A DNA stretch of 24,106 bases, taken from positions 2,083,925 to 2,108,030 of the forward strand of contig ML992502.1 of NCBI GenBank assembly GCA_010093995.1. Direction: 5' to 3'. The notes beneath the pieces are model-generated. The model saw nothing but the letters and a program-made list of their open reading frames with translations. It searched no databases and was not told the DNA's origin. The DNA is from Elsinoe ampelina. Taxonomy: Eukaryota. Both the position numbers and the translations under genes were made by a program. Numbering within the stretch: the stretch's first letter is position 1; each line of letters begins with the position of its first letter. Shown one piece after another: positions 1-24,106 of the stretch.

Positions 1-1
1 T

Positions 2-3095: not shown

Positions 3096-3998
3096 ATGCC
3101 TGGATTCAACGAAGAGCCATTAAGTCATGAAGAGTCCATGCAACTCGTACACTCGAAAATTGATGAGTGGACCAGATCACTGGAGAGGATCAACAGCACA
3201 GTGCAGCGATGGCGGGAATACCTCTCAAAACATCAAGAAAGTGAAGCACGTGACCAAGCCCCTCGCCTGACACGAACTCGGTCAGACTCATTGCAGTCTA
3301 TCAATGAAGAGAAGCACCACTTTACAAAGTCTACACAGATTCGATTCGAAGATACCCGATCAAGACGGCAGCCGAGTCCGACCAGCAGAACTCGTGAAGT
3401 GAAGCAAGTGGTCTTTTTCGATTCAACTTCTCAGAAGCAATTCGAGGAACTGGTCAAGAATGTTCAGTACGTGAGAAGCCGAGTACTCAGAACAATCGCC
3501 GTCAGCGAGCTCGCCGCCACGTCGCAATCAGTGAATGCAAAGCGCAGCGTTTCGAAGACTCTATCCCTCAGGACCGGTGGCACCACATCCAGGCCTGAAA
3601 CGGTCAAGGAGGAAATCAATCCGCTGGACAAGGATGTACGGCGACTCGAGTACTTGCTCAAACAGAGCATGGACCAGTGCGAAGAAGCAGCATATCAGCT
3701 TCTGCGGAAAGGAATTTGTGACGTCCAATTTCAGAATATCAGGAGACGGCTGAAAGAATGTTCGGAAATTGTAAGGAGTCACGTGGTAGCACTCACGCCA
3801 CCCCGGGCATTGTCAACTCGATCTGGCACTAGTCCGTCCCGGCCACCTACACAAAATGCAGCCACATCCGCTATAGAAGTACTCGAGGTCGACGATGAGG
3901 ACGATGACAGTGGCGATGAAGGTGAATTGGATGCTAAGCTCGACGCTCTGAGGCTCAAGTCGAAACAGATGGCGTCGAGGGTGCCCACGTCAGGATAG
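3096..3998 (+). CDS. Hypothetical protein, 300 aa, helical/coiled-coil, uncharacterised
   Basis: Intronless ORF with a good start context (GCCGCCATG). The blocks VFFDSTSQKQFEELVKNV and LKQSMDQCEEAAYQLLRKGIC resemble conserved uncharacterised ascomycete proteins. Acidic patch near the C-terminus. Confidence 0.75.
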   Translation: MPGFNEEPLSHEESMQLVHSKIDEWTRSLERINSTVQRWREYLSKHQESEARDQAPRLTRTRSDSLQSINEEKHHFTKSTQIRFEDTRSRRQPSPTSRTREVKQVVFFDSTSQKQFEELVKNVQYVRSRVLRTIAVSELAATSQSVNAKRSVSKTLSLRTGGTTSRPETVKEEINPLDKDVRRLEYLLKQSMDQCEEAAYQLLRKGICDVQFQNIRRRLKECSEIVRSHVVALTPPRALSTRSGTSPSRPPTQNAATSAIEVLEVDDEDDDSGDEGELDAKLDALRLKSKQMASRVPTSG

Positions 3999-4031
3999 TC
4001 AACGTCGTAATCTATACATGCTGTGAGGTAT

Positions 4032-4832
4032 CTACTTCGTCCTGACCTGCTTGAGCTTTCCCGGGCTGTGCACAAATTGAGTCGCGTATGCCTTGGGAAT
4101 GATCCTCCTCTCGTTTGGCTCCTGAACGAAGTACTCGTATCCTTGCTTCTGCGCAAATCTGATCGCATCGTCCTTGGAAGCAAAGCTGAGATGTGTGCCC
4201 TGCATGAAGTCTGCCGATGATTGCCAGCCCATCAAGGGGTTCTCCCATCTGTGTCCCTTTGATAGAATGTCCCAGTCCATACGCCATTGGTGGCCGTGCC
4301 AGTCCCCAGATTGCGTCGCGGTCTTAGCAGGACGGAAAATGCTATGATCAATATCAGCTACTGAGCTCGGTGAGGTTGGGAGGGGAAACAGACCGGACTG
4401 TGCGAGCTTGAAGGTCGGTTGGTGCTCCAGACAGCACAGCGGCTGGTACGTTATCGCCTGGCTCGCTGCCATCCATCACACGCATCGGTACTGGCGAGAA
4501 AGCACTATTATCGTTAGTCCCACCTCAAACGATGTCCGCTCTTCCACTGACGATGTTCGATAGTCGACTGCCACATTATAGTCTGGCGAATGCTTGGCCG
4601 CGCCCTCAGCTGGCCCCTCTTGCCTGATCAGAGCAGCCGATCCGGGCTTGTATCCAGGAGGCTCGGATGTCGAGGCGTGAGGTCGGTCTCGTTGCCCTCC
4701 TTGAGATGCGGGCGGGTTGTGTGCTTGGGTCTCCCATCTTACGGCGATGGAGCTGGTGTTGGCATTTGTACCTAGACGCAGTCGCGACGGCAGCGACAGT
4801 AAGCCCGATCGCAGAGGTCGAATGGCCGCCAT
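4032..4832 (-). CDS. NDUFS4: NADH:ubiquinone oxidoreductase accessory subunit NDUFS4 (21 kDa / AQDQ family), ~233 aa; exons 4832-4552, 4504-4394, 4341-4032
   Basis: Arg/Leu/Ser-rich mitochondrial presequence. The spliced product contains VLSGAPTDLQARTVRIFRPAKTATQSG and RWENPLMGWQSSADFMQGTHLSFASKDDAIRFAQKQGYEY. Introns 4551-4505 and 4393-4342 have GT..CTAAC/CTGAT..AG signals; total 702 nt in frame. Confidence 0.95.
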
Positions 4833-5002
4833 CTCGAATCTGGAGAGTGTGTGCAGTGCAGCTCAGTGGTAGTGAACATGGCAATCGAAGTTCGAGATCT
4901 TGGCTTCCACGTGATCTGCACAGACCAACGCCCTAATCAACCTCATCACTTCTTCAAGTCTCATAGGCACAGGAAACACTACGACCAAGCTCACACATCA
5001 CC
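4833..5002. promoter_or_regulatory. 170-bp divergent promoter shared by NDUFS4 and ATP17, containing CACGTGA (bHLH/Cbf1-type E-box) at 4908-4914
   Basis: The start codons at 4832 (-) and 5003 (+) face away from each other, and the E-box is near the middle. Confidence 0.55.
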
Positions 5003-5569
5003 ATGGTGTCAACACTCATCCCTCCAAAGGTATGTTTCTATTCAATTGACACCCACGCGACACCAGCTGACCCAATTCAGATCGCCTCGCCCAGCGTACG
5101 TACATCTCGAAATCTTCAACTCCCGAACCTCCCCGAATAGCCGTAGCATTGCGACATGACCACCCAAAGCATCCACACGAGACCACAATATGGAATTTGA
5201 GCTCTGACATGGATATTACAGGGCATCGGCGCCGCTAAGGACACCGCGCGCATGCAGCGGATAGTGTCTTTCTATGAGAGACTTCCCCGTGGACCCGCTC
5301 CAGAGGCTAAGCCACGAGGACTGCTCGAGAGATACCAGAACCGATACATGGGCAAGAAGCCATCTGGCATGCGTGCGTAGACAGACATGTATCAGAGATT
5401 GGAGTATTACTGACGCCGACACAGCCCTCGTTCACCTGATCGGCGGTCTGCTTGTCCTCGGCTATGCCCAGCAGTACTACTTCCACTTGAGTATGCGCCA
5501 GAGTTTCCCACAAACTTCCGAACGTGGCTCTGACATGATACAGGGCACCACAAGAACAACGCGCACTAG
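5003..5569 (+). CDS. ATP17: Mitochondrial ATP synthase subunit f, 94 aa; exons 5003-5029, 5081-5095, 5222-5372, 5425-5490, 5544-5569
   Basis: Spliced translation MVSTLIPPKIASPSGIGAAKDTARMQRIVSFYERLPRGPAPEAKPRGLLERYQNRYMGKKPSGMPLVHLIGGLLVLGYAQQYYFHLRHHKNNAH*. Four canonical introns, including a 15-nt micro-exon. Confidence 0.95.
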
Positions 5570-6347
5570 ATGGATGCATGGGGAGTGTTTTGACAGGAGG
5601 CAAACATGTATAGGATCGAGAAAGACTCTCGGCACATGCCTGAGACCGATAGACAGTTCTCAAATGCAGCAGCTTGTTCTTAATCAACCAATGTGGCTTC
5701 TCTAATCCTATGCACTTGTTGTTTTCTTACAAGACTTGAGGTGGAATGAATCATGTGGACGTCGATTTATGATCATGGTCATGGTATCACAATCACGAGC
5801 CTACTTCGTACTACCTACTTGTAACATATAGTCCATGTAGCGAATGACTGTTTCGGCAGCCCTAAATACGTTCCTTGTATTGCCGCGCCTGATGCGACAA
5901 AGCTGTGATGACAGGATTCAGGCGTGGCCCGTGCACCTTCAAAGCTTGGCCGGCTGTCATTCAGCAACGTCCTCCCTACCACAGCGACGGCCTTTGTCCT
6001 TGAGTCACACCTCACACTGATCAACCTCACCGAAGGGATCACATATCTCGCAACTCACGAAAGCTACAAGCAAATTAGCGACAAGGCCGAAGAGCCTCAA
6101 ACCCTTCTAGCAGGCAAAGCGATCAGCCTGCGCAACCAGGTCCTAGACCAACCCTGAAGGCGCGATTCCATCACGCTGGATCATTCAACGGGATAAGAGA
6201 AGGTGTGTACAATCTTGACAGCTCGGACGAGACATCTTCAAATCTCAATTCCAAGTCTTTGCGCGACTGGACATCTTGCACGGCTTTCCACCTCAGCCAG
6301 GGCTTTCAGCTGAACTTTACTGACAGCCACCTATAGTCAAACCTGTT

Positions 6348-9300
6348 ATGGCCTCTTCAGACACCCAAAATGTGGTGGTAAACTCCCAGTCGGTGGACGC
6401 TTCGTCCATCGACGCGCATGACAAGACATCCAATACTGCTTCCGCCGTCAACGGCACCTCCGAAATCTCCGCGCCCGCCGTACAAGAGCCCCCGAACACT
6501 GATACCGCCGATCTGAATGCGAACTCGACACTTGCAAATGGGAAGCTCTCCAATCCTTCACAGTCCTCGGACTTATTAGACGCACACGTAAATGGGAATG
6601 GGCAGCATGCAGATCATCTGAGCGTTGCGGACACAGCTTCGGTACAGGGGTCGGTGCCTGATTTTGACTCAAGAGATGCTGGGAGTGTCGGAGATGCGGC
6701 GATATCAGATACGGACAGTCGTGGTGACGCGGGCGAGCAGGGAAAGGATACGAATGGAAACATCAAATCTGGAGCTGTGAAGAAGCCGACTACGTTCAAA
6801 GCCGTCTCGGTGACCAAGAACTTCCTCGCCAAGACAGCGACCTCGACGCCTTCGGTCAAGGTGGGAGAGAAGCGTAAGGAGATATTCGGTCTAAGAGGGG
6901 CGGACACGAACTAACAATCATAGTCACGGCACCCGCAGTGAGCTCACCGCAGACTATGGCAAGACCTCGTCTGGTCGCAAAATCGGGCAGCGGTCTCCGA
7001 GATAGCCCTCGACCACGACCAGGGGCAGAAGGACCTTCAGAGGGAAACACGGTGTGGAATAAGAACCGACGTACGACTCGCTCTGGGCTTTGCGTTTTTG
7101 GCTACTAACACATCTCAGCCGCACCACCACCCCCTCCGAAGCAATTCACGGACGAAGAACTCAAGCAGCAATACGGGATTCATCTTGCATCACGCATACA
7201 AGCCGATGATGAAGGCTCTAAACAATCCAAGTGGGCTGACATGGAAGATGAAGAGGATGACTGGGCGCCAGAGACGATCGAATGGATGGACGGGACAAAG
7301 TCAAAGACGAATCCTGAGCCGGTACAAGCATCAAAGCCAGCAGAAGAGCCTCGACCTCTCGAAACGAAGACTAATATGACTCCGCTGAAACGACCAACGC
7401 CGACTGGACCCCCAAAGACCATTCTGCGACCCGGAGCTGCTCAACTAAGCAAGCAAGATGCATTGGGCGGAAAGGATACGCCAGAGCAGAGGGCTACCTT
7501 AGGTTCAAAGGCTTCTGCTGCTCCGCCTGTGAAATCACCATGGGCGACATTACCGCCAGTCGACAAATCGGTTCCGATGTTTCAACCACCACCTCCACCA
7601 GCACCAGCCTCGAAACCAGCTTTTGGCTCACAGGATGCTAGATTCATGGATGATGCGTCATCAGCAATACGCCATGAAATTGAGGCGGATACCTTCGACC
7701 GTTCCTGGCGGGATTCCAGCGGCCCACGAGAACTTTTCAACTCGCAATCAGGTCGCTATGAGCCAGCTCCTGAAGGTGGACGACGTGGATCTATGCGACA
7801 CGATCAAGGATATCGCCAACCAGCAGTCTTGCAACGACCTTCAGAAGAGGACGCTTCATCGCAGCCAAGGTCACAAGCGGAGGGCAGTCCTTGGAGCCGC
7901 CGACGGTCTAGTGTCAGTCATTCAGTGCAGAGTTTCGAGAGGCGGGTGTCGATTCCACCAAGCACGGATGCAGTCACACCATCGGAGAATCGCACTGGTA
8001 TTGTCATCGGCCATGACATTGGACCGCAGGGCAGGAAGTCTTCAGATGCAGCACAGAAACTTCAACAGCAGATCAACGATCGCAATGAGGAATTGGCAAA
8101 GCAGAAGAAGATCATGCAAGAGAAGCGGGAAGCGGCAATTCGTCGCCGGCGTGAGGAAGAAGAACGTGAGGAGGCCGAGCGTCGTGAGCGCATCCGCATC
8201 AAGCTCGAATCTCTCGGCATGTCGTTGCCTGACAAGAAGGAGTCAGAGGTGAAGGCCGAAAATGCGGAATCCCCGCAACAACAGGTTTCAACACCAGCCC
8301 CCTCACAAGCTATTTCGTCACCCGCACCTCCTGGTCTATTGTCACAACAATCGGAACAAAAGAACCATGAGCGACCTCACACCAGCCCTCTAAAGGCACA
8401 GCCACTTGAGAATGTGCGCTCGGACCCCGGCACTCAACATATACCTCCCCCTCAACAACCTCCTTTTGCAAACCAGGCAGTCCGTCCGACAGCGAATTTA
8501 CCGAGCAGGAATTTCCAAGACACTTCTGTCCCGGTCTCTTCGTACTCTTCTCCTGGCGAACAGAAAGCTCAACCAGGTTCTTTCAAATCACCAGCTCTCG
8601 TCGCAGATTCGTTTGCTACGTGGGGTACTCGCACTACCTCGGGTCACGCCTCGCCTGCATCCAACGTTTGGGGACCTCCGGGCGCAACAAGAGGCATTGG
8701 TAACGGCGCTTTTGACTCGAGCTTCTCCAGAATCCCACCACGTTTGCAAAATCAAAACATCATGGGTCAAGCATTTGGTCCGCAGAATAACCGCAGCCCG
8801 TCAGCCGGCAACCGCCAGCAGGAAACTTCACCAATGCGTCATCAGCAGATGCTGTCAGACCAAAATCTAGCTGCGCTTGGCCTGGTCGACACCCCGACTG
8901 ACAGCTTCCCATCAGCACCTTCTGCCGGGCCATCACCTATGCCTGCGCAAGCTCAGCCCGTCGCACTACCTCCGATCGGACCGCCTCCACACCGCCAAGT
9001 CAGCCAGCCATTCCAGCAGCAAGTTCCACCGCGCGGACCTGCATCTTGGGGTCATTACGCAGCTACGGCAGGCACTGAGCACCGTCCAGGCTACCCGCAG
9101 GCTCCCCAGCCTACCCACACCGGACCTGGACAACAGTGGAAGGAAACCTTCAAGCAGACCAAGGTCAGCAGCTGGACCGGAGCAACTCGCAATGTTGTGG
9201 TTGCCGAACCGGTTATCCACGCACAAACACAGGCTGGCCGGTCCGCACCGAGTCCAGCACCACCAGTTTCGCAAACTCAGCAACCAGCTGGCGCACAGGT

Positions 9301-10429
9301 TGCCGGGGATGACCAGGAGAGCACCGTCCGCCTTCCTACTGGCCCTGCTGCGTTCAAGAATCAGCCACCACAAGCGCCAATGCAGCAGCGTACTATGCCG
9401 AGCCTGCCGGCCCACCCCGTTGGTGGACACCAATCACGATTCTTCCCCATCGCCATTCAATACGGGTCGCCACCGCCCGAAGAGGCCAATCACCCTGCTC
9501 AGAGTGGTGACAAGGTCCATCCCAAGGTCAACTTGCCGCATCCCAAGCCAAAAGTCCGCCTGCCACAATCAGCTTCGCCGGCAGGTGTTCCAGGCGCACA
9601 GCCAAGTCCGGTCATCATGCCACAGCGCACACCGTCATACCGCGGTGTTCAGCCCCTCGTTCAGTCTTCCGACTGGCAAGCAAGGTTCAACGGACTATTC
9701 GGTAGAATCAGCACCACTACGGCTACTCCTCCATCGCCGCCCAAAACTCCGCCCAAGATGGACGCTATGCCATCTCCGGCTCCCATCTCGTCGTCCAAGG
9801 CGGATGTGTTCGAGGCTCCGGCGAACTTCTCGGCAACAGTCTCTCTACCAAGCAAACCTGGTGATGCAGCGCCTCAGCCTACCGGGCTGATTGTCAAGCC
9901 TTCTGCGGATGAGCTATTCGACGGCGAGTTGTCTTTCGGTTCTACTCCAAAGATCGTTGTCCCTCGCAACCCCAGCTACGAATTCGGCCCCGAGCGCAGA
10001 GGAATCCACATCCTGCGCATGTACCCCAATGCGAAATTTGATCGCCGTGTCATCTCACTTACCAAGGACTCGGACGTCGACAGCGATGACAATGTCACAG
10101 TCGCAACCATCAAACTATCATCGGAGGCAGACAGCAAGGAGGTTCCTCTACCACTGGCCATCACCAGGTCCAGGTTCAACGAAAAGCGCAAGCCATCAGG
10201 CAAGTTCGCCAAGTCACCCAAGATCGGATCAGAGAAGGAGAACGATGCGAGCCCCATCACCACACCCGTGAAGCTGGCAGATAGGATCGAAAAGACCAGA
10301 CCCAATCTCCAGAACAAGCCGACCCGCGGACCAAAGAGCTTCAGCAAAAGGGATGGTGAGCTCAAGTGGGCGCCCAAGACAGGCAAGGTCAGTCCAGCTC
10401 AGGCGACTGGTACACAGCAAGCGGCTTAG
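6348..10429 (+). CDS. Large Pro/Gln/Ser-rich, mostly disordered protein with a central charged coiled coil, ~1327 aa; exons 6348-6873, 6924-7070, 7119-10429
   Basis: Introns 6874-6923 (GTAAGG..CTAAC..TAG) and 7071-7118 (GTACGA..CTAAC..CAG) join the 188-aa and 1062-aa ORFs in frame. Conserved-looking islands: FKAVSVTKNFLAK, RPRLVAK, VWNKNRP, FTDEELKQQYGIHLASRI, KWADMEDEEDDWAPETIEW, RELFNSQSGRYEP, DWQARFNGLF. Confidence 0.85.
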
Positions 10430-10992
10430 ACGGCGGTGGAGCTGAAGATGAATATCGAGGTGGAGATTGGGACGGTGTCGCCGTAAGACGGCATTGAGGG
10501 TGGATGTAGGATACAGGAAGGGATGGAACGCAGTCGCAGAGATCATGGACGTCGTTCATTGAGAGAGGAAACACTCATGTATGCAGGAGAGGAGTCGGGT
10601 CGCCACGGTCAGTAAACATGCACTTGCCGGTGTTACAGCGGAGCGGTCATTAGCGATCTGGCACGATCGTAGTAGCGCAGATTTTGAGAATTGAGAGAAC
10701 AATCACTGCAATTATCTTCTTTATCAAGCGTGACATGATTAAGTGCTGAGATGGTGATTCCAAATTGTGACGCTGACCCTGCGGCTCCGAGCTGGGGTGT
10801 ATTAGGTGCGGAGAGATTCCGCACTCCACAGATGGAAGTCTGTTTTGTTTACACCTCCGCGAGCCCAGCTTCAACTTCACCATTCTTAGCATTTCACGAT
10901 TCACGACAAGACAGATCGATAGCGCGACATTCCTGGCGGCACAATAACTTGCGGCACTCTAGATTGTGTGAGATTTGGTCGAGCATAAAAAG

Positions 10993-12612
10993 ATGGCATA
11001 TAACGGGCGCATGAGCATGGCGCGCAGCTCACAGCAGTCCTCGCAGGGACGGAAGAAGGAAGATGACAGCGACGCTTTCATGACATTGGTACGTTGATTC
11101 CGCCGTCGCATGGTTTGACCTCGCCATTGGAATTCGTTGCGGTCGCATGTGCAAATGCCTCATATCTCCCGCACCCAGCGCAAGCATTCTCTACTACTGA
11201 TCCACTCCATGATTCTGCCAGGTATACTGACATCGCCAGCCTGATCGCGAAATTGCTGGCTGCATATCCGACATTGGCATTCCCTTCAGTGTCTCAGACC
11301 TCCAGAAACCAAATCCGCAACAGATCCAAAAGGTCTTTGAATGGTTCGCCGAACTCCTCCTCAACACGACGCGAGAAGTCGTTGCGCCAGGCATGTCCGC
11401 CGCAGCCTTTGCCATTTCCGGCGACGACGCAGACAGGATCTTCACGGCCGATACAAGAGAGCTGATGGGATTCTTCGTGATGCTGAGGAGACTGTTGGCC
11501 GAGTGTGGTGTCAAGGACTTTACATTCAGCGACCTCTACAAGCCAACGCATCCTCGCCTGGTACGAGTTTTTAGCTACATCATCAACTTCATTCGCTTCC
11601 GGGAATCCCAAACCCCAGTCATCGATCGCCACTTCAACAGCCTCGACGAGACCAAGCGCCGCATCGAATCTCTCTGGTCCGAAAACGAATCCCGCCGCGA
11701 CACGCTCGAAGACATGGAACGCAACAAAGACCGCCTATCCGAAGCCATGCGCGAGAAGGAGCGTCGCAGCCAGGACCTCAAAACCCGCCTCCTCGAACTC
11801 AAAAAAGGCCAAGAACGCGTCGCCGAAAAGCTCGAACGCGCCCGCGCCGAGCAATCCCGCCTCAAACTGGTCCTCGAAGAGCGCAACACCGACCGCATGA
11901 CCATCCGCAAAGAAGTCGAAAAGCTCCGGCCCTACGCCAGCCAATCCCCCGGCCAACTCGAACACCAACTCCGCGAGCTAGGCGACCAACTCGGCCGCGA
12001 GCGCGGCGAGATCGAACGCCTCGAGCGCCGCGACCGCGCCCTGAAAACCAGCCTCGACACGTTCGTCCTCGTCCACGCCGACGTGACGAGCCTCACGCGC
12101 CTGGCGACCGACGTCGCGGAGGAGTTGCGCAAAGAAGAAGAGGAGCTGTCGCGGGCGAACCGGGCGAGGGACGCGTTGAGCGAGCGGAGCAACAACGTGC
12201 GGGACGTGGAGCGGCAGGAGAGGTTCCTGGGGAAGCAGTTGCAGAGTTGGAACGAGCGGACGGAGAAGTTGAGGCGGACGGCCGAGGAGAAGCAGGAGGT
12301 GGCGAGGGTGAGGGTGGAGGAGTTGAGGGGGGTGCATGAGGGGTTGGGGAGGGAGAGGAGGGTGAGGGGGGAGGAGGTGGAGAGGAGGAGGGTGAGGATT
12401 GAGATGGTGGAGAAGAAGGTACGTCTTTGTTTCTTTGTCACTTTGGTGAACGGGGTTGGGGAGATGAGACATGGGATCGTGCTGACTTGTTGCAGATGGC
12501 GGATTTGAAGGATAATATCGAGAATGAGGTCCAGAGTGCGAGGGAGGAGTACATGAAGATGGAGAGCCATATTAAGCTTTATATCACGGAAATGGAGCAG
12601 AGTCTTGTTTGA
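10993..12612 (+). CDS. NUF2: Kinetochore protein Nuf2 (Ndc80 complex), ~463 aa; exons 10993-11088, 11240-12418, 12496-12612
   Basis: CH-domain motifs [29 protein letters not shown] and [34 protein letters not shown], then a long coiled coil ending [17 protein letters not shown]. Introns 11089-11239 and 12419-12495 are canonical. Confidence 0.95.
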
Positions 12613-12689
12613 GACAGGGCGAGAAGGAATGGTCGGTTTCGGTTTTGGTTTTGGATACCCTTCTTCGCTAGTATTTTCTCCCACAGACG

Positions 12690-13478
12690 CTATGATTCAA
12701 CGAATTCGCACCATTTTCCGGCTACCTCTCGGATACTGACTGTTCGTCCTTGCCAGCCTATTTCTCTGCTCGCGGCACCTTTGGCTTTGACGTTGGTGAT
12801 GGGGATTTGTTCGTCCCATGGCGATGGCGTTGCTTGTCGGTTGGTAGCGTCCTCGGCTTCGGCGAAGAGGTCGCCAACGTAGAGCGCTCGAGGGGTTTGT
12901 GGGACGCGGCACTCGGCGATGATCAGTCTTGCTCCAAGGTCATGCGCTGTTGAGACTGCGGCTGCGAAGAACCTGGTGAGTCCTTGTGCGGAGTAGGATC
13001 GGGTGCCGTCGTGTTGCGTGATTGGGTTTAGTACTGCGAGAAGGGGTGGGCCTGGGGAGTCGACGTTGCTGGTGGAGGAGGAGTCGCGCTTCAGTGGTAG
13101 TGAGGCGAGATATGCCAACGTGTGAGGTGTGCTTGGGCAGAAAGCGACCTTGAGTTTGCTGGCGGCGAAGAGCATATACAGAGTTGGTTGTAGGAGAGGG
13201 TGCTCTGCCAGTCTGCTTCTGTCTGCCTCGTCTTCGTCGAAATCTGGGTCGTTCATTTCGATGTCGATAGGCTGGTCTGCAGTGCCATGCTGCTTCGACA
13301 GCTTGTTGTCCGTCACGATGGCGTTGTACAGGAAGTGCATGAAGTCGTCTTTGGAGCTGCAGACGACCAGAGTCGACGACGATGTAGCATGTTTCACTAG
13401 GCTTTCCAGGACTCTGATCAAGGACGCGTCATCGAGTACTACGGACGCCGTGGTGTTCCAAAGTGACGTGCTAGCCAT
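12690..13478 (-). CDS. Conserved fungal hypothetical protein, 262 aa (alpha/beta pattern)
   Basis: Intronless ORF with motifs TLVVCSSKDDF, HPLLQPTL, KVAFCPSTPHTLAYL, SAQGLTRFFAAAV, WDEQIPI and WQGRTVSIREVAGKWCEF, typical of an uncharacterised Pezizomycotina family. Confidence 0.8.
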   Translation of the reverse strand: MASTSLWNTTASVVLDDASLIRVLESLVKHATSSSTLVVCSSKDDFMHFLYNAIVTDNKLSKQHGTADQPIDIEMNDPDFDEDEADRSRLAEHPLLQPTLYMLFAASKLKVAFCPSTPHTLAYLASLPLKRDSSSTSNVDSPGPPLLAVLNPITQHDGTRSYSAQGLTRFFAAAVSTAHDLGARLIIAECRVPQTPRALYVGDLFAEAEDATNRQATPSPWDEQIPITNVKAKGAASREIGWQGRTVSIREVAGKWCEFVES

Positions 13479-13656
13479 TGACGCATGTGGGAAATGTCCG
13501 AGTGAGCTGCTCCGACATTGTGCATCAAGATGGACTACTACCGAGCTGGGATAGCTACAGTATTTTGTTCAATAGCTTTCGTATGGTACCTTGCTTTCCG
13601 TATCGTGCAAAAGAGGACATGACATGAGTGTATGATCGATGTAATGGAGGGGATGA

Positions 13657-13798
13657 TGTTGTAATGGAAGGCTGGTACAGCTTCTCTGGTACTGAAGAAC
13701 TGGCACTGATGAGTCAGCGCACGTACAGTAGATAAATCGGTTACTGTAACTCTCTGAATGAAACACACGTCTCTTGATCCGATTTGCTAGTTATAACA
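13657..13798 (+). repeat. 5' LTR (142 bp) of a Ty1/Copia retrotransposon
   Basis: Begins TGTTGTAA and ends TTATAACA (TTACAACA with one RIP C>T), i.e. short inverted termini TG...CA. It is immediately followed by a copia-type PBS. Confidence 0.75.
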
Positions 13799-13810
13799 GG
13801 TTATAAGCCC
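13799..13810 (+). other. Copia-type primer binding site GGTTATAAGCCC (RIP form of GGTTATGAGCCC)
   Basis: Directly abuts the LTR CA end and matches the GGTTATG(G/A)GCCC PBS used by copia-like elements primed with an initiator tRNA-Met fragment. Confidence 0.75.
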
Positions 13811-14201
13811 GGCGCTTCTATAAAAGCACTTAAAGCTGTAGCAAATTAAGCGTGTTATTATTAAAAGGATTACTAAGCTGCCTATACTAAATTCTAGACT
13901 AGCTATATTAAGACAAACACTTGTAGTAGCCTGTATTAACCCTTTAATCTAATAGCTTAAACGGCTTAAACAAGCTAATTACATTAATTAAATTAATAAG
14001 CCTTTAGCTAATTACTATTATTATATCTAGATTAGCAAAAATGCTTAAGACTTAGATTCTTAAGAGAGAAAGTAACTATAATACTTAGAGATTAACTCTT
14101 AAGGTAGCTCTCCTTAAAAAGGATATACTTAGATATACAATTTATAGCATCGACTAGATACTAGTAGTTATAAAGCCTAAAGAACTAGCTCTAGATACTA
14201 G

Positions 14202-14218
14202 TAGAGTAGTTTTTAGGT
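14202..14218 (+). repeat. Left terminal inverted repeat of the hAT element
   Basis: TAGAGTAGTTTTTAGGT, preceded by the TSD GATACTAG. Confidence 0.9.
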
Positions 14219-14578
14219 TAGGTTAGGTACTAGAATTACTACCTATAACCTAACCTATAGCGATACTAGTACTTAAAGCTTGGTAACTGTAACTCTCTAA
14301 GCCTTAGGTAGTGTTACTTAGCCTTAGGTATATAGTTAGTTATAGTGTTACTTATAACACTACCTAATAGTACCTATAGGTACCTAAGAGTTAAGGAGTA
14401 GATATATATCTTAAGAACTTAAGATTTAGGAATTAAAATTTAAAAGTTAAAGGTTATAATTACATTTATTAATTACGCTAATCTTGCTAGTACCTCCTAT
14501 CTACTCTTATAGCCTACGCCTTACTTACTTATCTACCTTTATAGAATAATTGTCCTTACTATAAACTATCTAATTGTC

Positions 14579-15113
14579 CTAGTTATATATATTAAACTTT
14601 GTATAATAGCGACAAGTAAGCTATAAATCTTTCTAGTTAATAGTAACTTACTTAGCATAAATACAATTAAGGTTCATATCTAAGAATATTAGTATCTATA
14701 ATAGCATTAAATTTAAATAATAGATACCTTCTATATACCTAATAATAAATGCTTCTATTGCTTCCTAAAGTGCTTTAAGAGCTTTAGATTAGATATAAAA
14801 GCTTTTACCTTAATAAACATAGTCTTTAATAATCTTATAGACAAGGTAGCTAAAGAGAAGCTTATAGTAGAGAAGTTTAATTAACTTCTAGTAGCAATAA
14901 ATCTCTCGGAGAGCAATAGCTATATAGTATTAGTAATGTAACATAATAATTAATTGTAATAATTATACTACTAGCCTTAAACTTGTTCTTCTTTCTAGAA
15001 GCAATAGTTATCTTATAAAGTTACTTAGTAGTAGAAGCCTTAGGTCTACTAGACAACTTACTCTTATAACTATAACTATAGGTTAGTACTATAGTACCTC
15101 TCTTAGGAGGTAT
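14579..15113 (-). pseudogene. RIP-mutated histone H3-like gene inside the hAT; exons 15113-14969, 14919-14728, 14679-~14579 (~145 aa)
   Basis: Literal translation: ...RKKNKFKAST IALREIYCY*KLIKLLYYKLLFSYLVYKI...FYI*SKALKAL*EAIEAFIIRYIED MNLNCIYAK*VTIN*KDL*LTCR. Using only C>T/G>A reversions this becomes KFKAGTVALREIRRYQKS.ELL.RKLPFSRLVREI...RIQSEALEALQEATEAF.VG..ED.NLNCIHAKRVTINQKDSQLARR. Two 48-49 nt introns have TACTAAT branch sites. Confidence 0.9.
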
Positions 15114-15751
15114 AGTTACTATTACTACTAAGGATAGAGTCTTAGGAGGTACTTATAATATAAAGTAATCTTATAGTAGTAAGGGTAAGGTAGTAGAGGG
15201 TATAGAAAGTAACGAGGTAGATATAGTAGTAGTATAAAGAAAGATAAGTAGAAAGAGAAGAGGTAAAAGGGATAGAAGAAGAGAAATACGTAATAAGAAG
15301 AGAAATGTATAATAATTTAGTAGCTAGTAATAGCATAGCTAACAATAGGAATATAATATTATAATAGAAATATAAAATTAGTAAATTAGAAATATATAGT
15401 ATATAGAATACTTGCTTATTATAATATTATTTATAATAGTAAAGTATATAATATTAGATTTATTTAAACGCTTAGAAGAAGAGGAATCTAGACATTATAG
15501 AGTACTAATAATAAGTATATAATAATCTAGCGTAATAATACAATACTAATTTAGTATACTATAATTCTTAAAAACCTTACATTTTATATTTTATATTCTA
15601 CCCTAGCTACCTTATTGTTACTTTATACATAGTAGAAGGCTATATTACTCTTCTCTATTCTTCTTCTTCTTCTATTAACTTCCTTTTTTCTTGTCTCTAT
15701 TGCCTTTTTGTTTCTACGCTCTTAAGTTTAACTTTTATATCTTATTTTACT

Positions 15752-17095
15752 ATAGTAACCTCTCTAGATACTTCTATAGCTAATATACCTTCTAATACTT
15801 CTCCTAGTAGCTTTCCTAAGATTAAGAATAAGTTTAATAAGTTTAAAACTATAATAGAGATAATTATTATAGTGTTTTATTACGAGTATTAAGCTAATAG
15901 GTATAGGGCTTTAGGTCTAAGTAGGCTAAAATCAAATACTAGATCCTTTAGTATAGTTAAGGTAGCAAGGCATATCGTAGTTGTCTAACTAGTTTTAAAG
16001 CAGGTTTAAGTAAGCCTTTAAAGTAGAATATTTAGAATATTATACGCTAAGATAAAGATGCTTAATAGTTAGCTAAGGTTAAGGCACTTAAAGTAGCTAG
16101 AGATACTAATTGTAGTATAAAGAGGAATTTGCTTAAGAAGTTTAATATAAATACTTAAGTCTAGAACCTTAGTAAAGAAGCAAAGGTAGAACTCCTTATA
16201 GAAAAGATTAAGGAAATAGAGTAGCGCCGTTTCGACGCCTAGTAAAGCTATATAATTATACTACTATATTATCACATTTAACACTAATAGATTATAGATA
16301 AATAGCTATCTAGCAAGTTTAGAAAAGTCTATGTTAAATAGTAGCGCATTAGAAAATTTGCTATATGTTAAGAGTATATAAAAGTCCTTATAAAGGCAAA
16401 GGTAGCTTATACTACTAAGTCTAGCAAGGAGAATAACATGTTAAGAGTAGCTAAGTAGATATATAGTTCTAGCGGAATTCTCGAGAAGCTTAAGTATAAG
16501 ATCTATATAGCTAGCGCTACTAAGCTTACTATTAATAAAGGTACTAATAAGAATACTAAGAAGAAGTACTTAAAGTTTGTCTAGAAACTTAGTAAGGAGG
16601 GTAGGCTTACTACTATCTCCGATCCTAACTAGTAGTAAGTTCCCTATTATTATTATATATTATTATTACGTTAGTATACTAATAAATAGCAGAGCTTATA
16701 ATTCTATACCTCCGGCTAAGTATTAACTACTCGAGCTAATCTATCTTATAGATAAAGGTAAATATATAAAGCCTAATAACAATAACAAGTGTAAAGAAGT
16801 ATATAAGCTAGACTATAACTCTAAGATTAAGAAACTAGCTAATAAGTATAAGACAGACAAGTAGTATATAGAGTTTAAGAGGTTTTCCTCTAATAAGGAT
16901 AAGATTATTAATAAGAGAGAGAGGGTTAAAGTAGAAAGTTCTTTAGAGGGTAGAGATAAGGAGAAGAATAATAATAAGAATAATAATAAGAATAATAATA
17001 AGGATAATAATAAGGATAATAATAAGAATAATAATAAGGAAAGGGATAAGGAAATAGTCGATGCTAAGGAAGATAAATTTACTAGCTTTAACTAG
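15752..17095 (+). pseudogene. RIP-mutated cargo gene for a ~409 aa acidic protein with a long D/E C-terminal tail; probable exons 15752-16009, 16069-16634, 16690-17095
   Basis: One frame is maintained across introns GTAAGC..TAG (16010-16068) and GTAAGT..TACTAAT..TAG (16635-16689). All internal stops are TAA/TAG. The tail (aag aat/gat aat aat)n de-RIPs to EDDD repeats and ends EEMVDAEEDEFTGFD*. Confidence 0.65.
16960..17040 (+). repeat. 12-bp tandem repeat AAG(A/G)ATAATAAT, about 6 copies; RIP-altered GAG GAT GAT GAT acidic coding tract
   Basis: Directly visible, and in frame with the acidic cargo gene. Confidence 0.8.
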
Positions 17096-17199
17096 TAGAT
17101 TTTCTATACTATAATCAACTACTAAGTAGTTTAATCTATAGTATAGTCCGGCCCTTTTATAGATTTAAGTTTTATAATAAGATCTTTTCCTATATAGCT

Positions 17200-17869
17200 A
17201 CTATTATTATTTATGCTTCTAATTGTTACCTCTAATAATAGTAAATTATCTATATTATTACTTCTAACAATAGATTTCTATTACTATTGTTACTATAAAC
17301 AATAGGAGGTACTAGATATATATACTATCTCGTTCCTATTTATTCTTTTTTCTAAAACCTCTCTTTCTTATTATTATAGCTTCTCATGTATAACTCTATT
17401 CTAACTTAGAAGATCTAATCCTCTATTAGCCTTATACTATAACTTATAGTAACTACGCTAGGCTACTACACTTACGTTAGTATAAAGCTTATATCTACTA
17501 TATAACTAAGTAATTTATTAATAGTAAGGAAAGGTAGACTACTTATATCTATAATAACAATAGAGGCTTCGAACTTTGCTATAAGGCCTATTACTCTTAT
17601 AATACCCCTTATAACTTTATTAGTATTCCTAATCTAATACTACTATATTCTCTAATAAGTATTAGTACGACAGCTTCTAGACTAATAATATTTTTAACCT
17701 TATCGACATATAGCGTACACTTAATCGTTACTATCTTAATCTTATCCGGGATTAGATTACAATCTTTAATATACGCTATAGCGTTAAACGCTAGTAGGAC
17801 AAGCTAGATAATTCTAAATCCTAAGGATCTTAATAGTTCTAATTCTTCTAGTAACTAGTTTAGTAGTAT
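17200..17869 (-). pseudogene. Probable third RIP-mutated cargo gene of unknown function (3' end uncertain)
   Basis: The minus-strand frame from ATA(ATG) at 17869 de-RIPs to MPPNQLPEELEPLRSLGFRIIQLVPPAFDAVAYIEDCNLIPDEI.... Two candidate introns (GT..TACTAAT..TAG and GTAAGT..GCTAAT..TAG) preserve the frame. Confidence 0.45.
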
Positions 17870-18369
17870 AATATAAATAAAGCATTAGCGGGCTAATAGC
17901 TTTAGTAGGTTTTTTATAATATAGATATGCCTTTAATTTTAAAAATTTTCTACTCTACCCTAATATAGACATGCCTTTAATTTTAATTATGTTACCTATT
18001 CCTTAGCCCCTATATAATATAAGTCTAGCCTATAGAAATTAATATACCTCTTACTTTAAAGTTTCTATAGTATAGTATAGGATTTATTATTACATATTAT
18101 AAACACGTTAATAAATATTCTATAATAAGTTATCTACCTTTATTAAATAATATAATCTATACTAATTAACATATCTAGAGCTTCTAACTCTAAGTTAGTA
18201 CTTAACCTATAACTTAGAGATACTATATATTTCTCTCTAGCTATTCTAGCAGAATTACGTAGCTTTATAATCTCCGCTTAGAATGTTAGACGCAATAGTA
18301 GAATACAACAATTATAACTCCTTAAATGCCTGCCTTTTTAATCTAGTAAGAGATTTAAGAATTAACCTC

Positions 18370-20800
18370 TATAATAAGCCTAGAAAGACTAGTAGAGTCG
18401 AATAATTATAGTATCTATATATAAAGAAGGCACGAAAATTGTACTAAATTAGAATTCTAAAGCACGTTCTAGAGGTCTATAGGCAAATATCATAGAAGCT
18501 ACTAAGATTTATAATAGAGAACTATAAGTTATTTATAATAGGTATAGTAATATACTTACTTATTCTACTTACTGTTATACTAGTAATAAAGCAATAGAGA
18601 GACATCTTAAGTCTTAGAAATACACTATAGTTGTTAAGTACTGCTATAAGTAAAGCTCTACCTAAAAAGCCCTTAAGCAATTATAATAGTATATAAAGAG
18701 TATTTACTAAATTATCTCTCTATTCTCTACTAATATCTTCTACTATAAGCTTATTCGTATAGTTACTAACTATAACTAGTCTTTCCGCATAGTTAAGCGT
18801 TCTACCTTTAGCTAATTCCTCTACTTCCTTCGACCTAATATTACTATACCTAGCTAGACTCTTTTTTAAGTAACACTAGTAGTATAATTTAAAAGGTTAT
18901 AAAAATTACTACTCTCTAACCTCGGTAAGAACACTAAGCTTTTAATAGCGTTAGATAGATAGTCTACTAATAACTACTTAGGGTTTATTATAATTAAAGG
19001 CTATTTTATTAATAACTAATAGCAATTACAAGAGTAGCTCCTAGAAATAACACCCCTTTAAGGTTGCTACACTAGTAAAGCTATAGCAAATAAGGTAATA
19101 TAGGTACTAAAAGATGTATCGGTTAAGTAATAACTACTTATAGTTATAGCAGATAATATATTAAATAATAAAACACTCCGAGAGTCTCTCGAAAGAAGCC
19201 TAGGTACACTAGATATTAAGTAGAATATAAAGGAGAATATAATTCTATACCTAGTATATATTATTAATCTTGTTATATAGGACATTATTAAGCATCTAAA
19301 ACTTAAGACAAGCAAAGAGATTAACATAGTAGAGAGGTTATAAAACTACTATATCTAGAATATTATAATATTAGTCTCTGTTCCGAATTTACTATAGAAG
19401 GTATATAACATTTATTACATTGTTTTATTACGTCCTAATATTAGTAAGCTCTATGTAATATATATTATAATTAATAGTTCCCTATAATAGTTTAAACAAT
19501 TTATAGACCTCTAGAAGCATCTACTACCTAAGAAGAGGTACTAAGTTATATATAATGTTAAGACACGCTAGAATTTAACATATAATATATATAAGCAAGT
19601 ATTAAAGCTTAAACCTTTTATTAAGAATTAGCTCGAGAATAAGACTATACTCTAAGTACTAAGAACTTCTTCTAAGGTATTAATATCTAAACTGCTCTCT
19701 AACATTAACAACTATAACTTTACTAAGTTATTACTTAATCCGAATAAGTAGTAGTATCTTAAATCTATTATAGTAATACTAGAGAACTTTAAGAAAGTAA
19801 TAACATAGCTAAGTACTAGTAGCTAACCTCTTCTCTAGCATATATAGACGATGTATAATGTACTCTTTAACTTCTTAGATAAAATTAAAAAAGGCCTAAT
19901 TAGCACTAAGAATTATAACAATCTACCTATATAGCTAGCTACTATATAAAAGGTAGTAGTAAAAGGACAAGAGAAGCTTAAGAAATACTATATATAAACT
20001 AAGGATAGGAAGGACATACTCTATAACTATATAACAATTCTTAACCTCTCTAAGAAGCTTATAGTATATAATATAAGCGCCTATAGTCTTTCTAGTAAGT
20101 AGTAGCTAATAACACTTAGGATATAGAGACTTAGAAACCTTACTATAAAGACAACTATTATAAGAAGTTCTTATAGTACCTTTGTTAGTATAATAAGATA
20201 GACCCCTTAATTGCTTTACTAGCCTCTACCTCTAAGCTATTACGTCACTAGTAACGAGACTAGTTTAACTAACCGAAACGAAAGAAGTAAGATTATACCC
20301 TATTACTATAAAGCGATAGTCTATACTTCTTATTTATTCCCTCGAAGCGTACTATAGTTAAAGAAGGTAAGGACTACCTTACGACACTACTAGTCTATAT
20401 TTAGAAACTCGATGTCTTATAGTAGTAGAAAGAGAAGAAGGAAGAATATCTATTACTATTACGTATAGCAAAAGATATTCTAGTAATTCTAATTATAGGG
20501 GTTAGAGTCGAGTAAGTGTTTAACATTATAAAGAATATTATTAGTGCGCGGAGGCATAAATTAGTAGCCTAAACTATTTAGTAGCTTATAATGTTAAAGT
20601 ATAAGCTTAAAGCAGCTTTACTATTAGGACAAATTAATATAGAACTAGAGATAGAGGATAAGGCTACTAATACTAATAATTTGCTTAAATTGTTATTAAG
20701 GACTAATATAAATTAACTAGACAATATTACTATAGTACTAAGCTATAGTAATAATAACTACTCTAAATTAGAGAGAGAAAGAGTATAGGGAAGTTAATAG
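18370..20800 (+). pseudogene. hAT transposase, RIP-mutated (boundaries approximate)
   Basis: De-RIP motifs: BED-like MERHLKSQKH (~18595), first catalytic D SIALDGWST (~18943), GHFIDNQWQL, second D TADNA (~19146), PCLAHIINL (CxxH, ~19245), DVKTRWNST (~19555), and the hATC dimerisation domain DVLQWWKEKKEEYPLLSRMAKDILAIPIAGVGVERVFN (20411-20524). Confidence 0.92.
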
Positions 20801-21283
20801 TATTCTAGTAGAAAGCGTTAGCAGATTTACTAGCTAGATTATATTTGTACTTCTAGTATAATTTGTATATTTTGCTTACTACCTCCCCTTACGTAATAAA
20901 GTAGCGTAATAAAGTTAGGCCTAAAAATTTGTAAGGTATAGTAACGCGCTAAGCTATAGAGTAAGNNNNNNNNNNATAAGGCTACTAATACTAATAATTT
21001 GCTTAAATTGTTATTAAGGACTAATATAAATTAACTAGACAATATTACTATAGTACTAAGCTATAGTAATAATAACTACTCTAAATTAGAGAGAGAAAGA
21101 GTATAGGGAAGTTAATAGTATTCTAGTAGAAAGCGTTAGCAGATTTACTAGCTAGATTATATTTGTACTTCTAGTATAATTTGTATATTTTGCTTACTAC
21201 CTCCCCTTACGTAATAAAGTAGCGTAATAAAGTTAGGCCTAAAAATTTGTAAGGTATAGTAACGCGCTAAGCTATAGAGTAAG
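20658..21283. other. Assembly gap (10 N at 20966-20975) flanked by an identical 308-bp direct duplication (20658-20965 = 20976-21283)
   Basis: The two copies read identically and meet exactly at the N run, as expected for unmerged overlapping contig ends. Confidence 0.85.
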
Positions 21284-21464
21284 TGCTTTAACTACTAACC
21301 TATTAGGTACTATTAGGCAGGTACTAGGTTAGGTACCCCCCCCCCTAAGGGCGACACTACAACTATATACTAACCCTACCTACCTTAGTATAGTACCTAA
21401 CCTAGAGCAACCTCTCTCTACTAAGCTTTTATACCTAACCCCTACCTAATATAGTGCTATATCT

Positions 21465-21481
21465 ACCTAAAAACCACTCTA
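21465..21481 (-). repeat. Right terminal inverted repeat of the hAT element
   Basis: Reverse complement is TAGAGTGGTTTTTAGGT, followed by the TSD GATACTAG. Confidence 0.9.
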
Positions 21482-21489
21482 GATACTAG

Positions 21490-24106
21490 TAAAGGCACTA
21501 AGGTAATCTATAAGGTTAGGAATAAGACCTAGTATAAGAATAATAGAATTACTTATAGTATTATTATAATAAGGATTTATAAATCTATTAGACCTTACTA
21601 TAGTATAACTTAGAAGACTTTAAAGGAACTTCTAGACACTATTAAAGCCACATTTAAACCTATTATTTTATATAAGCTATATATAGCTATCTATAACCTT
21701 AACAAGGTAATTATAACAAGTTATAACACCTAAAGGTACTATAAAGATTTTATAAAGTACTATTATTAATACACTATTACTATAGAGCAAAGAGCAAGCA
21801 CTATTAGTACTAAACTAGATAAGTTTAGGCTCCCTCTATACTATATTAAGACTATATTTATTATAGGAATAGAGACTACTAAATAGTTAAGGAGCTAGAG
21901 ATCTAGCCTTAACTATAAGAAGAGTCTTAAAGAAATAATAAGCTCTCTTAGAATATAGAAGCCCCTATATAATAGAAGAACTAATCTAAACCCTATTTAT
22001 AGAGTAGCTAGTTATATTAAGAATTAATACACTTAGTATACTTATTATATCTACTCTAATATAGATTACTTTAAGTAGTACTCTAAGAAAGCACTAAAGA
22101 GTTAAAGTAAAAGAGATAACAAAGACAAGTTAAATAATAAAGGTATAAAGGCTAAAGGTAAAGGTAACAAGTTAAAGACTAAGAAAGTTAGAGGTTAAGT
22201 AGCTATTAAAGAATCTAGAGAACCTACTAAGGTAGGTAAATTAGATAAATACTCTAACACTAATATTAATATTATTATACTAGTCTATAGAGTAGTAGTA
22301 GTATCTACATTATTATCCTTAACCTATAGTAAGAATAGAGCAATCTATAACTCTAGTATATTAAGGTACTTTATTAAAGACAAGTTATAGTTCTTAATAA
22401 TTAAGGTATATAAAGGTATTCTTAAGTTTAAATAAGCTATTAGTATAAAGAAGCTACTTAATATAGAAGTTAGTATAGTTAGGCTTACTCTAACTAATAG
22501 TAAAGGCAAGAAGTTAATTATTAAGCTTTATAATTATATATACTTACTATTATTACTAAACACCCTTATATCTAATCTTTAGAACAAAGAGGAACTTAGT
22601 ATCTCTATAGCTAGCAAATCCTTAATAAAGGATAGAAAGGAAGTTAGCCTTATTAAACACTTTAAAAGAGTTAAATAGCTTAAGAACTTTAAAGTCTATA
22701 AGCCTTAGAACTATAAGGAATTACCTATAAGGCTAAAACTATAGAAGCTATAGGCTATAAGAGCAAATCTAGCTATTATAACTACTTAAAAGCTAACATT
22801 AGAAAGATAGTACTAGAGGTTAGGCTATATTAGTAATACTATTCTCTCCCTTACTAAAAGTTAAGCTATTAGATTAGAAGAACTTTAAATATTAGATCTT
22901 AGCTACTATAAACTATATACTATATTAAAGGCATAGAGAGTAGTATTAAGAGAACTAAGAGATATACTAAAGTACTTACTAGATAAGCTCTATCTAGACC
23001 TTGTTAGTCCTATTAAACTATAGTTAAGTAAGGGCTATAAATACCTTCTCTTTATAACATATAGTAAAAGCAAGTACAAGTTTATTACTATTCTCTTTCT
23101 TAAGAGTAATACACTAGTAGTAATTAAACTTATCTATACAAGGAATAAAATAGCCTATAATAAGCTTTTATTTATCTTTATCTCTAATAGAGGAGGTAAA
23201 TTTAAGAACTATAAACTAGTAATAGCTATTTATCTTAAAGGGTAGAGATAGAATATCTCTATACCTAATACTTAATACTAAGATAGTAAATCTAAGGCTA
23301 CTAATAAAGTAGTTATTCTTAGGATAAGGTATATCTTTGTTAATTATAGAGCACCCCTTAAACTCTAGTATATAGTTATAGAGTTTATAATCTATATTAG
23401 TAATAGAATTACCTATACTAAAACTAAGAAGATTCCTATATAAGAGCTAAGAAAGGATCTTCTTAATAATAATAGGCTAGTCTTATTAACTTACATTAGA
23501 CGCTTTAGCTATAGAGCCTATATCTATAACTAACATGTTTCTAAATTATATAAATTCTAAGCTAGAGCACTACTTAGTTAGTATATTAGTATATAAAATA
23601 ACTTAACGACTAATTACCTTATCTAGATACTCTATTAGTATTATACTTAGTAAGCCTAGAAGGAAAAGATTATTATATTACTCTATGTAATATTTAATAA
23701 GAATATAATCTATAAAGACTAGGTAATATAAGTTATTAAATAGCTATATATCTTATAGGTATAATAACCTAAGGCTTTATAGCTTTAGGGGGAGTAGACA
23801 TTTAGTAGTAATTATAATTAAGGCTATAGCTATAATTAACTACCCTTTAGTTATAAGAATCTATAAACTACTTAGGCTAAACAACCTTAAGTTAAATAAC
23901 TAACATCTAACTACCCTTTAATCCCTAGATATAAATAACAATTATCTACCCCTATTAAAGAATAGAAGGAGTAATACTAACATCCTAAACTAGATCCTTA
24001 ACCTGTTAATAAACAGGGGGAGTAACTTAATATTACTAATTATAAAGGTAAAGACCTTATAACACTACTACCTAAAGTTATTAGTAAACTATATTTAACC
24101 TTTAAT
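21490..24106 (+). pseudogene. Copia gag-pol (gag C-terminal part, protease, GAG-pre-integrase, integrase), RIP-mutated
   Basis: Motifs as listed for the element. The stops at motif positions are TAA/TAG, replacing CAA/CAG/TGG/CGA codons. Confidence 0.85.

Follow-up and report, generated by a model that had tools for sequence, protein, structure and literature searches.

In a 24,106-nt stretch of the genome of the fungus Elsinoe ampelina (GenBank contig ML992502.1, positions 2,083,925 to 2,108,030; hereafter the window, numbered from its first base), we found one complete hAT DNA transposon at 14202-21481 that repeat-induced point mutation (RIP) has rendered inactive. In addition to the remnant of a transposase, this element contains a histone H3-like gene on the minus strand and a second gene on the plus strand (~15856-17095), referred to as the middle gene. 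The middle gene is very probably a genuine, formerly functional protein-coding gene that belongs to an undescribed fungal family, and the evidence presented below establishes its existence, structure, and composition.

The first-pass annotation, made from the sequence alone, had read this pair as a candidate histone and chaperone module encoded by a transposon. That observation is mostly right, and both genes do lie within a single transposon, as indicated by terminal inverted repeats (TIRs), an 8-bp duplication of the target site (TSD), and a hAT dimerisation domain. However, the proposed gene model needs correction, and the chaperone role is an attractive hypothesis on a partly published background. 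Based on the conservation of the second gene, its intact relatives in Alternaria and on multi-copy environmental contigs, and its strongly acidic tail, the element looks like a three-gene unit.

The middle gene and its protein family

The neighbor of the H3-like gene had been described as divergently transcribed, and we found it on the plus strand, ending at 17095, opposite to the H3-like gene on the minus strand. The two motifs that had been quoted from its core were also located, reading ILEKLKYKIYI at 16477-16509 and KKYLKFV.KL at 16561-16590. The parts of the gene are as follows.

15856-16634, plus strand: main coding part, with the basic GRP-type motif region and the all-helical core (homology and RIP-aware alignment)
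16635-16692, plus strand: last intron, 58 nt, with GTAAGT, a branch-like TACTAAT, and CAG (stop column of the homologues and Alternaria models)
16693-17095, plus strand: last exon, the formerly acidic, aromatic-studded tail (stop at 17093-17095; frame differs from that of the main part)
16943-17050, plus strand: 12-nt tandem repeat (AAT AAT AAT AAG)n within the tail (repeat search)

For homology searches, the 22 TAA/TAG codons in the translation of 15952-16635 were set to X, and this read-through translation was compared by phmmer with 1.84 billion representative proteins. Four matches were obtained at E ≤ 0.001. Three of these (P0003, P0004, and P0006; 187-238 aa; E = 1.1e-7, 2.0e-6, and 2.8e-4, respectively) belong to one family and have most of the query aligned; the remaining match is a repeat protein that is not related to them. 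In a profile-profile comparison of the middle gene with this family by hhalign, the probability was 97.6 with an E-value of 4.6e-12 over 205 columns. A word-indexed search with the RIPped translation returned 261 candidates, none of them at E ≤ 0.01. The stop codons of the window align to columns at which the homologues have W (three columns), R (five columns), and Q. Because RIP converts exactly those codons to TAG or TAA, we interpret these stops as RIP products. At 16048-16050, for example, the TAA of the window reads CGA in copies from public sequencing runs, which corresponds to a conserved R of the family.

The model of three exons and ~409 codons proposed previously holds for its last intron, which is supported by the Alternaria models and the RIP-aware alignment, but not for the intron-like stretch at 16242-16313. 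Regarding the last intron, all nine homologues that were called as open reading frames (ORFs) and that reach this point end at one alignment column, after a conserved W. At the same column, the window has TAG TAG TAA, with GTAAGT starting from 16635. The shared end is likely explained by a conserved GTAAGT/GTGAGT, which gives an in-frame stop to intron-blind callers. In two intron-aware Alternaria models of 342 aa, the protein runs on past ...DKDWE for 77 more residues and ends in ...ETEFEGFSD. In contrast, 16242-16313 has an aligned coding counterpart in the homologues, the conserved segment SGKLSQ..IT..YLQ..AEWL, which all 11 non-NCBI members that span this region contain and all three NCBI Alternaria models skip. 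These three models (P0014, P0015, and P0016) omit 16-17 conserved in-frame residues at alignment columns ~162-178, and judging from the aligned sequences, this omission is probably a mis-predicted intron. At the 5' end, the RIP-aware alignment follows the Alternaria N-terminal region upstream in the same frame only to ~15856, and such alignments are permissive. No start codon was found by this alignment back to that position.

When the last exon of the window was compared with the Alternaria protein by plain BLASTP, no significant match resulted (E = 12). Since RIP turns D/E into N/K, we instead used a RIP-aware alignment, in which each codon of the window may stand for any possible RIP precursor and only C-to-T changes before A and G-to-A changes after T are allowed. 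With this method, the last exon aligned to the Alternaria tail with a score of 111 (z = 5.1). By comparison, 200 composition-preserving shuffles of the tail scored 69.9 ± 8.1 (maximum 93) and 90 other RIPped stretches of the window scored 68 at most, such that 0 of the 200 and 0 of the 90 reached 111. The Alternaria tails have 26 D/E, four K/R, and seven aromatic residues in 77 residues. Of the 25 D/E positions of the Alternaria tail that could be aligned, 13 are occupied by N/K and six by D/E in the window.

We also applied a context test that needs no homologue, in which A/G-A-N codons of the last exon were divided according to whether the base before the first codon position is T or another base. 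After T, the first base was A in 45 codons and G in none, whereas elsewhere the counts were 10 A and 20 G (Fisher's test, p < 1e-4). Within the repeat-rich part at 16952-17068, the corresponding counts were 21 A and 0 G after T and five A and eight G elsewhere (p = 1e-4). This restriction to A in the RIP context, together with the abundance of G in other contexts, indicates that the N/K-rich tail was formerly largely D/E, and that RIP changed most GAT/GAG codons of the tail to AAT/AAG. The earlier suggestion that the C-terminal tract would revert to D/E once RIP is undone is thus borne out by both the RIP-aware alignment and the context test; the opposite possibility, an originally Asn/Lys-coding tract, had been named beforehand as the outcome that would speak against it, and is contradicted by the same results.

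The (AAT AAT AAT AAG)n repeat is lineage-specific and has no counterpart in the Alternaria homologues. Around it, the terminal EF.GF motif occurs in two copies, YIEFKRFS at 16865-16891 and EDKFTSFN followed by the stop at 17069-17095. In other copies of the element, position 16880 reads G (GGG for AGG), which gives EF.GFS as in Alternaria.

It may be asked whether there was a gene at all, given that the raw sequence of the main part has 22 stops in 228 codons and that the tract consists of a simple 12-nt unit repeated in tandem; the frame and the N/K tract could then be by-products of AT-rich, RIP-degraded, low-complexity DNA. This explanation conflicts with the significant homology to intact proteins, the coincidence of the stops with W, R, and Q of the homologues, and the homology of the tail, the score of which was reached by none of the 200 shuffles that preserve composition and by none of the 90 control stretches with RIP. 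On the basis of homology, stop positions, and tail controls, it is refuted for the gene as a whole, and we assign it a negligible probability. We also considered whether the middle gene might be a histone, such as a degenerate H4, and rejected this because no Histone Pfam match was found, the model is all-helical with long helices, and there is no histone among the fold matches.

The family to which the middle gene belongs is small. A profile search with three members gave 15 proteins at E ≤ 0.01 among 7,240 candidates from a collection of 5.8 billion proteins, and a word-indexed search with P0004 alone returned only P0004 itself. Most members come from JGI, Logan, and ENA and have no protein name, and the three NCBI models are from Alternaria alternata (A0A3G9H9B5), A. 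gaisen (KAB2107039.1), and A. arbusti (J4E86_011826). There are signs of multiple copies: one member sequence (P0019) was found on 23 contigs, and one cluster at 90% contains 11 distinct sequences. Three members (P0003, P0004, and P0006) are on contigs of 5.9-6.2 kb, P0027 is on a contig of 22 kb, and the A. gaisen homologue is on a 2.3-Mb contig. Overall, this is an orphan family that behaves like transposon cargo.

The members share a basic N-terminal motif, RGQGGSRKGRPTNF.PFKG.LS..RAIAQR, with a GRP core like that of an AT-hook. The form [RK][KT]GRPT is present in each of the 13 aligned members that cover this position, as KKGRPT or RKGRPT in the NCBI Alternaria proteins and as RTGRPT in one ORF-called member. 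The Pfam AT_hook family gave no match at E ≤ 0.1 in 14 members, and such short motifs score poorly. An AlphaFold2 model of P0004, based on 14 aligned sequences, is all-alpha with a pLDDT (predicted local distance difference test) score of 77.1 and has predicted helices at residues 53-78, 87-107, 112-163, 187-205, 211-223, and 226-233. The predicted core comprises ~180 residues and is all-helical, including one helix of ~50 residues. In the model of P0015 from Alternaria, the tail is below a pLDDT of 50 at residues 271-302 and 331-342 and has short, low-confidence helices at 305-311 and 320-330. As modeled, the protein therefore appears to consist of a basic N-terminal motif, an all-helical core, and a disordered tail that is rich in D/E and aromatic residues and ends in EF.GF(S)D.

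The protein had been reported as unrecognized, and our searches agree: at E ≤ 0.1, no Pfam family is common to more than one of the 14 members, PDB sequences searched with the family profile gave no match at E ≤ 1, and no fold match was obtained. Pfam families of histone chaperones (NAP1/SET, nucleoplasmin, ASF1, Spt16/FACT, and others) had no match in the 14 members and two translations of the window at E ≤ 0.1 to 1. Foldseek searches of the PDB with two models gave no match at E ≤ 0.001, and a missing match does not exclude a fold. In an exhaustive structural scan (VIA-align wide), the best Z was 6.8, obtained for generic helical hairpins that represent the background for helical proteins. 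The best scores in the protein atlas were 0.77 and 0.79, which serve as leads only. A Flp_N match in one of the 14 members (E = 3.3e-4, below the cut-off) was rejected as chance.

The hAT element, its H3-like gene, and the RIP setting

The assignment of 14202-21481 as a complete hAT-type transposon is based on its TIRs, the 8-bp TSD, and the hAT dimerisation domain. The ends were read from the sequence and checked with a strict script that required an 8/8 match of the flanks and at most three mismatches in 17 positions for pairs 2-12 kb apart within 13600-24106, and only one TIR and TSD pair in this region was retrieved. The features of the element are as follows.

14194-14201, no strand: left TSD copy, 8 bp, GATACTAG (identical at 8/8 positions to 21482-21489)
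14202-14218, plus strand: left TIR, TAGAGTAGTTTTTAGGT (16/17 complementary to 21465-21481; the sole mismatch is a transition)
14579-14998, minus strand: RIP-inactivated histone H3-like gene (histone-fold homology at 14609-14920; stop at 14579-14581)
14680-14727, minus strand: 48-nt in-frame insertion in the H3-like gene, GT...TACTAAT...TAG (intron hallmarks)
14999-15855, no strand: region between the divergent 5' ends, presumed shared promoter (orientation and frames)
20372-20602, plus strand: hAT C-terminal dimerisation domain of the RIP-degraded transposase (Pfam PF05699)
20658-21275, no strand: assembly artefact, an exact 300-nt duplicate flanking a gap of 10 N at 20966-20975 (repeat search, 100% identity)
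21465-21481 and 21482-21489, no strand: right TIR and right TSD copy

The PF05699 match has 25.5 bits (cut-off 21.4; E = 1.1e-5). No catalytic, DUF659, BED, or other transposase domain was detected by Pfam in the RIPped sequence. The 300-nt duplicate almost certainly represents overlapping contig ends at a scaffold join rather than biology. As assembled, the element is 7,280 bp long, or ~7.0 kb if this artefact of ~318 bp is subtracted.

The minus-strand gene is a histone H3 by homology to the H3 fold. When its translation was compared with the PDB by phmmer, 170 distinct H3 sequences were matched at E ≤ 0.01 (best E = 5.1e-9), with query residues 27-130 aligned to H3 residues 45-129 and 19 residues in surplus, which include those of the 48-nt in-frame stretch. 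The Pfam Histone match (E = 3e-3; 18.2 bits) is under the cut-off of 26.4, as expected after RIP. The 48-nt stretch within this gene looks like a small spliceosomal intron by its sequence, and it may have been spliced. Among the H3-like copies of other fungi, some have a 16-residue insertion, and the captured H3 has been argued to be intron-less (Dhillon et al., 2019; PMC6710886). A search by Pfam in six frames gave no second H3-like copy downstream of the tail of the middle gene.

The 5' ends of the H3-like gene and the middle gene are roughly 0.7-0.9 kb apart, compared with the ~640 bp from the H3-like start that the first-pass annotation had given. The intervening region at 14999-15855 is presumed to be a shared promoter, and the start codon of neither gene was located. 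At ~15235-15310 on the plus strand, there is a purine-rich stretch of which one frame gives a very basic peptide, RKISRKRRGKRDRRREIRNKKRN, with no support from homologues. This stretch may be due to chance or may represent an unrecognized upstream exon.

The composition of the window changes to the left of the element. Bases 1-13500 have an ordinary fungal composition with a G+C content of about 0.5-0.6, and this value drops to ~0.27 from ~13600 through the end of the window. The RIP indices in this low-GC half are 1.6-2.1 for TA/AT and 0.17-0.36 for (CA+TG)/(AC+GT), compared with 0.3-0.7 and 1.0-1.8, respectively, in the left flank. The low-GC half is thus heavily mutated by RIP. The sequences surrounding the element (13570-14201 and 21490-24106) are other RIP-degraded repeat DNA that contains no Pfam-detectable domain. 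On the minus strand, 12690-13568 is a long open frame that looks intact, and the RIP block begins within ~100 bp of its end.

Related copies were found in contigs from public runs, in which transitions account for 127 of 127 (X1), 170 of 190 (X3), 189 of 199 (X5), and 60 of 66 (X8) differences from the window. For X5 (organism C), the contigs differ from the window at 14202-17200 by 87 A>G and 75 T>C changes, against 12 G>A and 15 C>T changes. This excess of A>G and T>C indicates that the organism of X5 holds less-RIPped copies of the same element. These copies are a good source for the original, pre-RIP sequence of the element.

Possible functions of the middle protein

We tentatively regard an element-encoded chromatin accessory protein, working with the H3-like histone (H3L) of the same element, as the most likely function of the middle protein. 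We favor a histone-binding escort because the tail is acidic and aromatic and because the gene stands head to head with the H3-like gene. Under this hypothesis, the tail would bind an H3L-H4 dimer, or alternatively H2A-H2B, at its basic surface, while the basic N-terminus and the helical core might tether the protein to AT-rich DNA or mediate oligomerization. A single bidirectional promoter region of the element would then provide the variant histone together with its escort. The 3-kb stretch with the H3-like gene and the middle gene is fully covered in runs of three organisms (X1, X3, and X5; 30 of 30 bins each). An acidic segment of the type seen in histone chaperones is present in the Alternaria tails and in the pre-RIP tail of the window, and such a segment is not specific to chaperones.

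Several points weigh against this hypothesis. Acidic, aromatic tails equally fit activation domains and other binding tails, and similarity to chaperones was found neither by Pfam nor in PDB sequences nor by fold. The intact tails are only two and near-identical (the proteins are 92% identical), and both lack the (NNNK)n repeat. The runs of X1, X3, and X5 contain the same element family and are not independent evidence of linkage. Furthermore, a three-part layout with a "central ORF" was described for an H3L-carrying hAT of Pyrenophora tritici-repentis (Manning et al., 2013; PMC3538342), and according to a 2025 preprint (10.1101/2025.11.13.688278), the 5.6-kb Pyrenophora element is a 2.6-kb hAT that has another hAT nested within it. 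Based on this reinterpretation, the Pyrenophora central ORF may be part of a protein with a hAT dimerisation domain and does not have to belong to the middle-gene family.

Other functions fit the same facts almost as well as a histone escort. If the middle protein were a transposition cofactor of the "second ORF" type and the H3-like gene an independent passenger, the GRP motif would bind subterminal AT-rich DNA, the core would oligomerize, and the tail would recruit or regulate the transposase or its import into the nucleus. The conserved basic N-terminal motif and the long helices are consistent with such a role, as are the multi-copy, transposon-borne behavior of the family and the ~6-kb contigs that resemble a whole element. 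Two-ORF DNA transposons are known, namely, PIF/Harbinger with its Myb-like ORF, En/Spm with TnpA, and MuDR with mudrB, and some transposases are helped by DNA-bending proteins with an acidic tail, for instance HMGB1. However, the protein lacks a recognized DNA-binding domain (0 of 14 members matched Pfam AT_hook at E ≤ 0.1), a second ORF is not known for hAT elements in general, and the head-to-head placement with the H3-like gene is left unexplained. We consider a cofactor possible, if on the unlikely side. A role as transcriptional regulator, in which the protein would contact the intergenic promoter through its basic motif and drive H3L, the middle gene itself, or the transposase with its tail as an activation domain, is decidedly improbable. 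The 26 D/E and seven aromatic residues in 77 residues are of a composition typical of acidic activation domains and the gene is located at the bidirectional promoter region, but no DNA-binding domain is recognizable and all copies here are dead.

The middle gene could also be a host or foreign gene that was captured and amplified by the hAT and that serves neither the element nor H3L. The H3-like gene has been interpreted in publications as a case of transduplication (PMC3538342; PMC6710886), and the A. gaisen homologue on the 2.3-Mb contig could be a normal gene. On the other hand, the family is very sparse, with the 15 proteins at E ≤ 0.01 in 5.8 billion and none from many other annotated fungal proteomes, which argues against a passenger because a host gene that is conserved should have a wider distribution. 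In addition, several members are multi-copy, and specific tail motifs are conserved between Alternaria and the window. We consider a passenger gene unlikely.

Returning to the histone escort, a broader claim can be formulated, namely, that a hAT lineage extending over at least two Dothideomycetes orders encodes a self-contained chromatin module that consists of a variant H3 and a dedicated, acidic-tailed escort from a fold family not recognized before, the two being expressed from a shared divergent promoter. We regard this claim as doubtful. If true, the element could use nucleosomes of its own to package or mark its DNA or the sites of its insertion. The H3-like gene would then belong to an old pair of co-adapted genes and would not stem from a recent, accidental capture of the host gene. 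H3-carrying hAT transposons have so far been treated as accidental gene captures, and the middle protein provides a concrete candidate partner of the transposon's histone. Should this partnership be true, the element would be the first cut-and-paste transposon known to have its own histone-handling system; should it be false, the middle gene would still represent an uncharacterized family of transposon accessory proteins that is worth naming.

Comparison with known systems

Acidic-tailed histone chaperones include NAP1/SET, nucleoplasmin, the tail of fungal Asf1, the C-termini of Spt16/Pob3, and DAXX. Like these, the middle protein has a long, disordered, D/E-rich C-terminal segment with aromatic residues, and like DAXX it combines an all-helical domain with an acidic segment. 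Unlike these, it has no sequence or fold similarity to the folded domains of the chaperones. The second-ORF proteins of transposons (the Myb-like protein of PIF/Harbinger, TnpA of En/Spm, and MURB of MuDR) and HMGB1 are likewise non-transposase proteins, encoded within or recruited by a cut-and-paste element, with basic DNA-contacting and protein-contacting parts, but the middle protein gave no sign of a Myb, HMG, or any other known DNA-binding fold.

Fully RIPped, H3-carrying hAT elements with 8-bp TSDs were reported in six Mycosphaerellaceae, and other domains in these elements could not be identified (Dhillon et al., 2019; PMC6710886). The family of Pseudocercospora, Cercospora, and Sphaerulina resembles the element of the window in having an H3-like copy within a hAT, confinement to AT-rich RIPped blocks, an 8-bp TSD, TAGAG-type TIRs, and, in some H3-like copies, the 16-residue insertion. 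It differs in that a middle gene is not described in the parts of that publication considered here. Six strings of the window (five G+C-rich 10- to 12-mers and one 18-mer of the left subterminal repeat) had no exact match in its consensus file. Of six further strings, two were unmatched, and the other four, including very short ones, matched without locating the gene. By eye, the Cercospora zeae-maydis consensus (supplement 2 of PMC6710886) shows a D/E tract and then a run of K codons directly upstream of, in frame with, and on the same strand as the N-terminal tail of the H3-like sequence. In C. zeae-maydis, an acidic extension may be part of the histone copy or fused to it.

The H3L-carrying hAT of Pyrenophora has the same layout as 14202-21481 in the window. 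The Pyrenophora copies are intact and expressed, whereas the copy in the window is RIP-dead. None of the 15 family matches is from Pyrenophora, and what its element shares with that of the window is the layout. In the literature searched, we found no transposon-encoded histone chaperone and no account of the middle gene beyond the layout papers cited above. Thus, the three-part layout of the module, which the first-pass annotation had presented as new, was already published; what is new, within the same literature, is that the middle gene is recognized as representing a conserved family whose tail is acidic.

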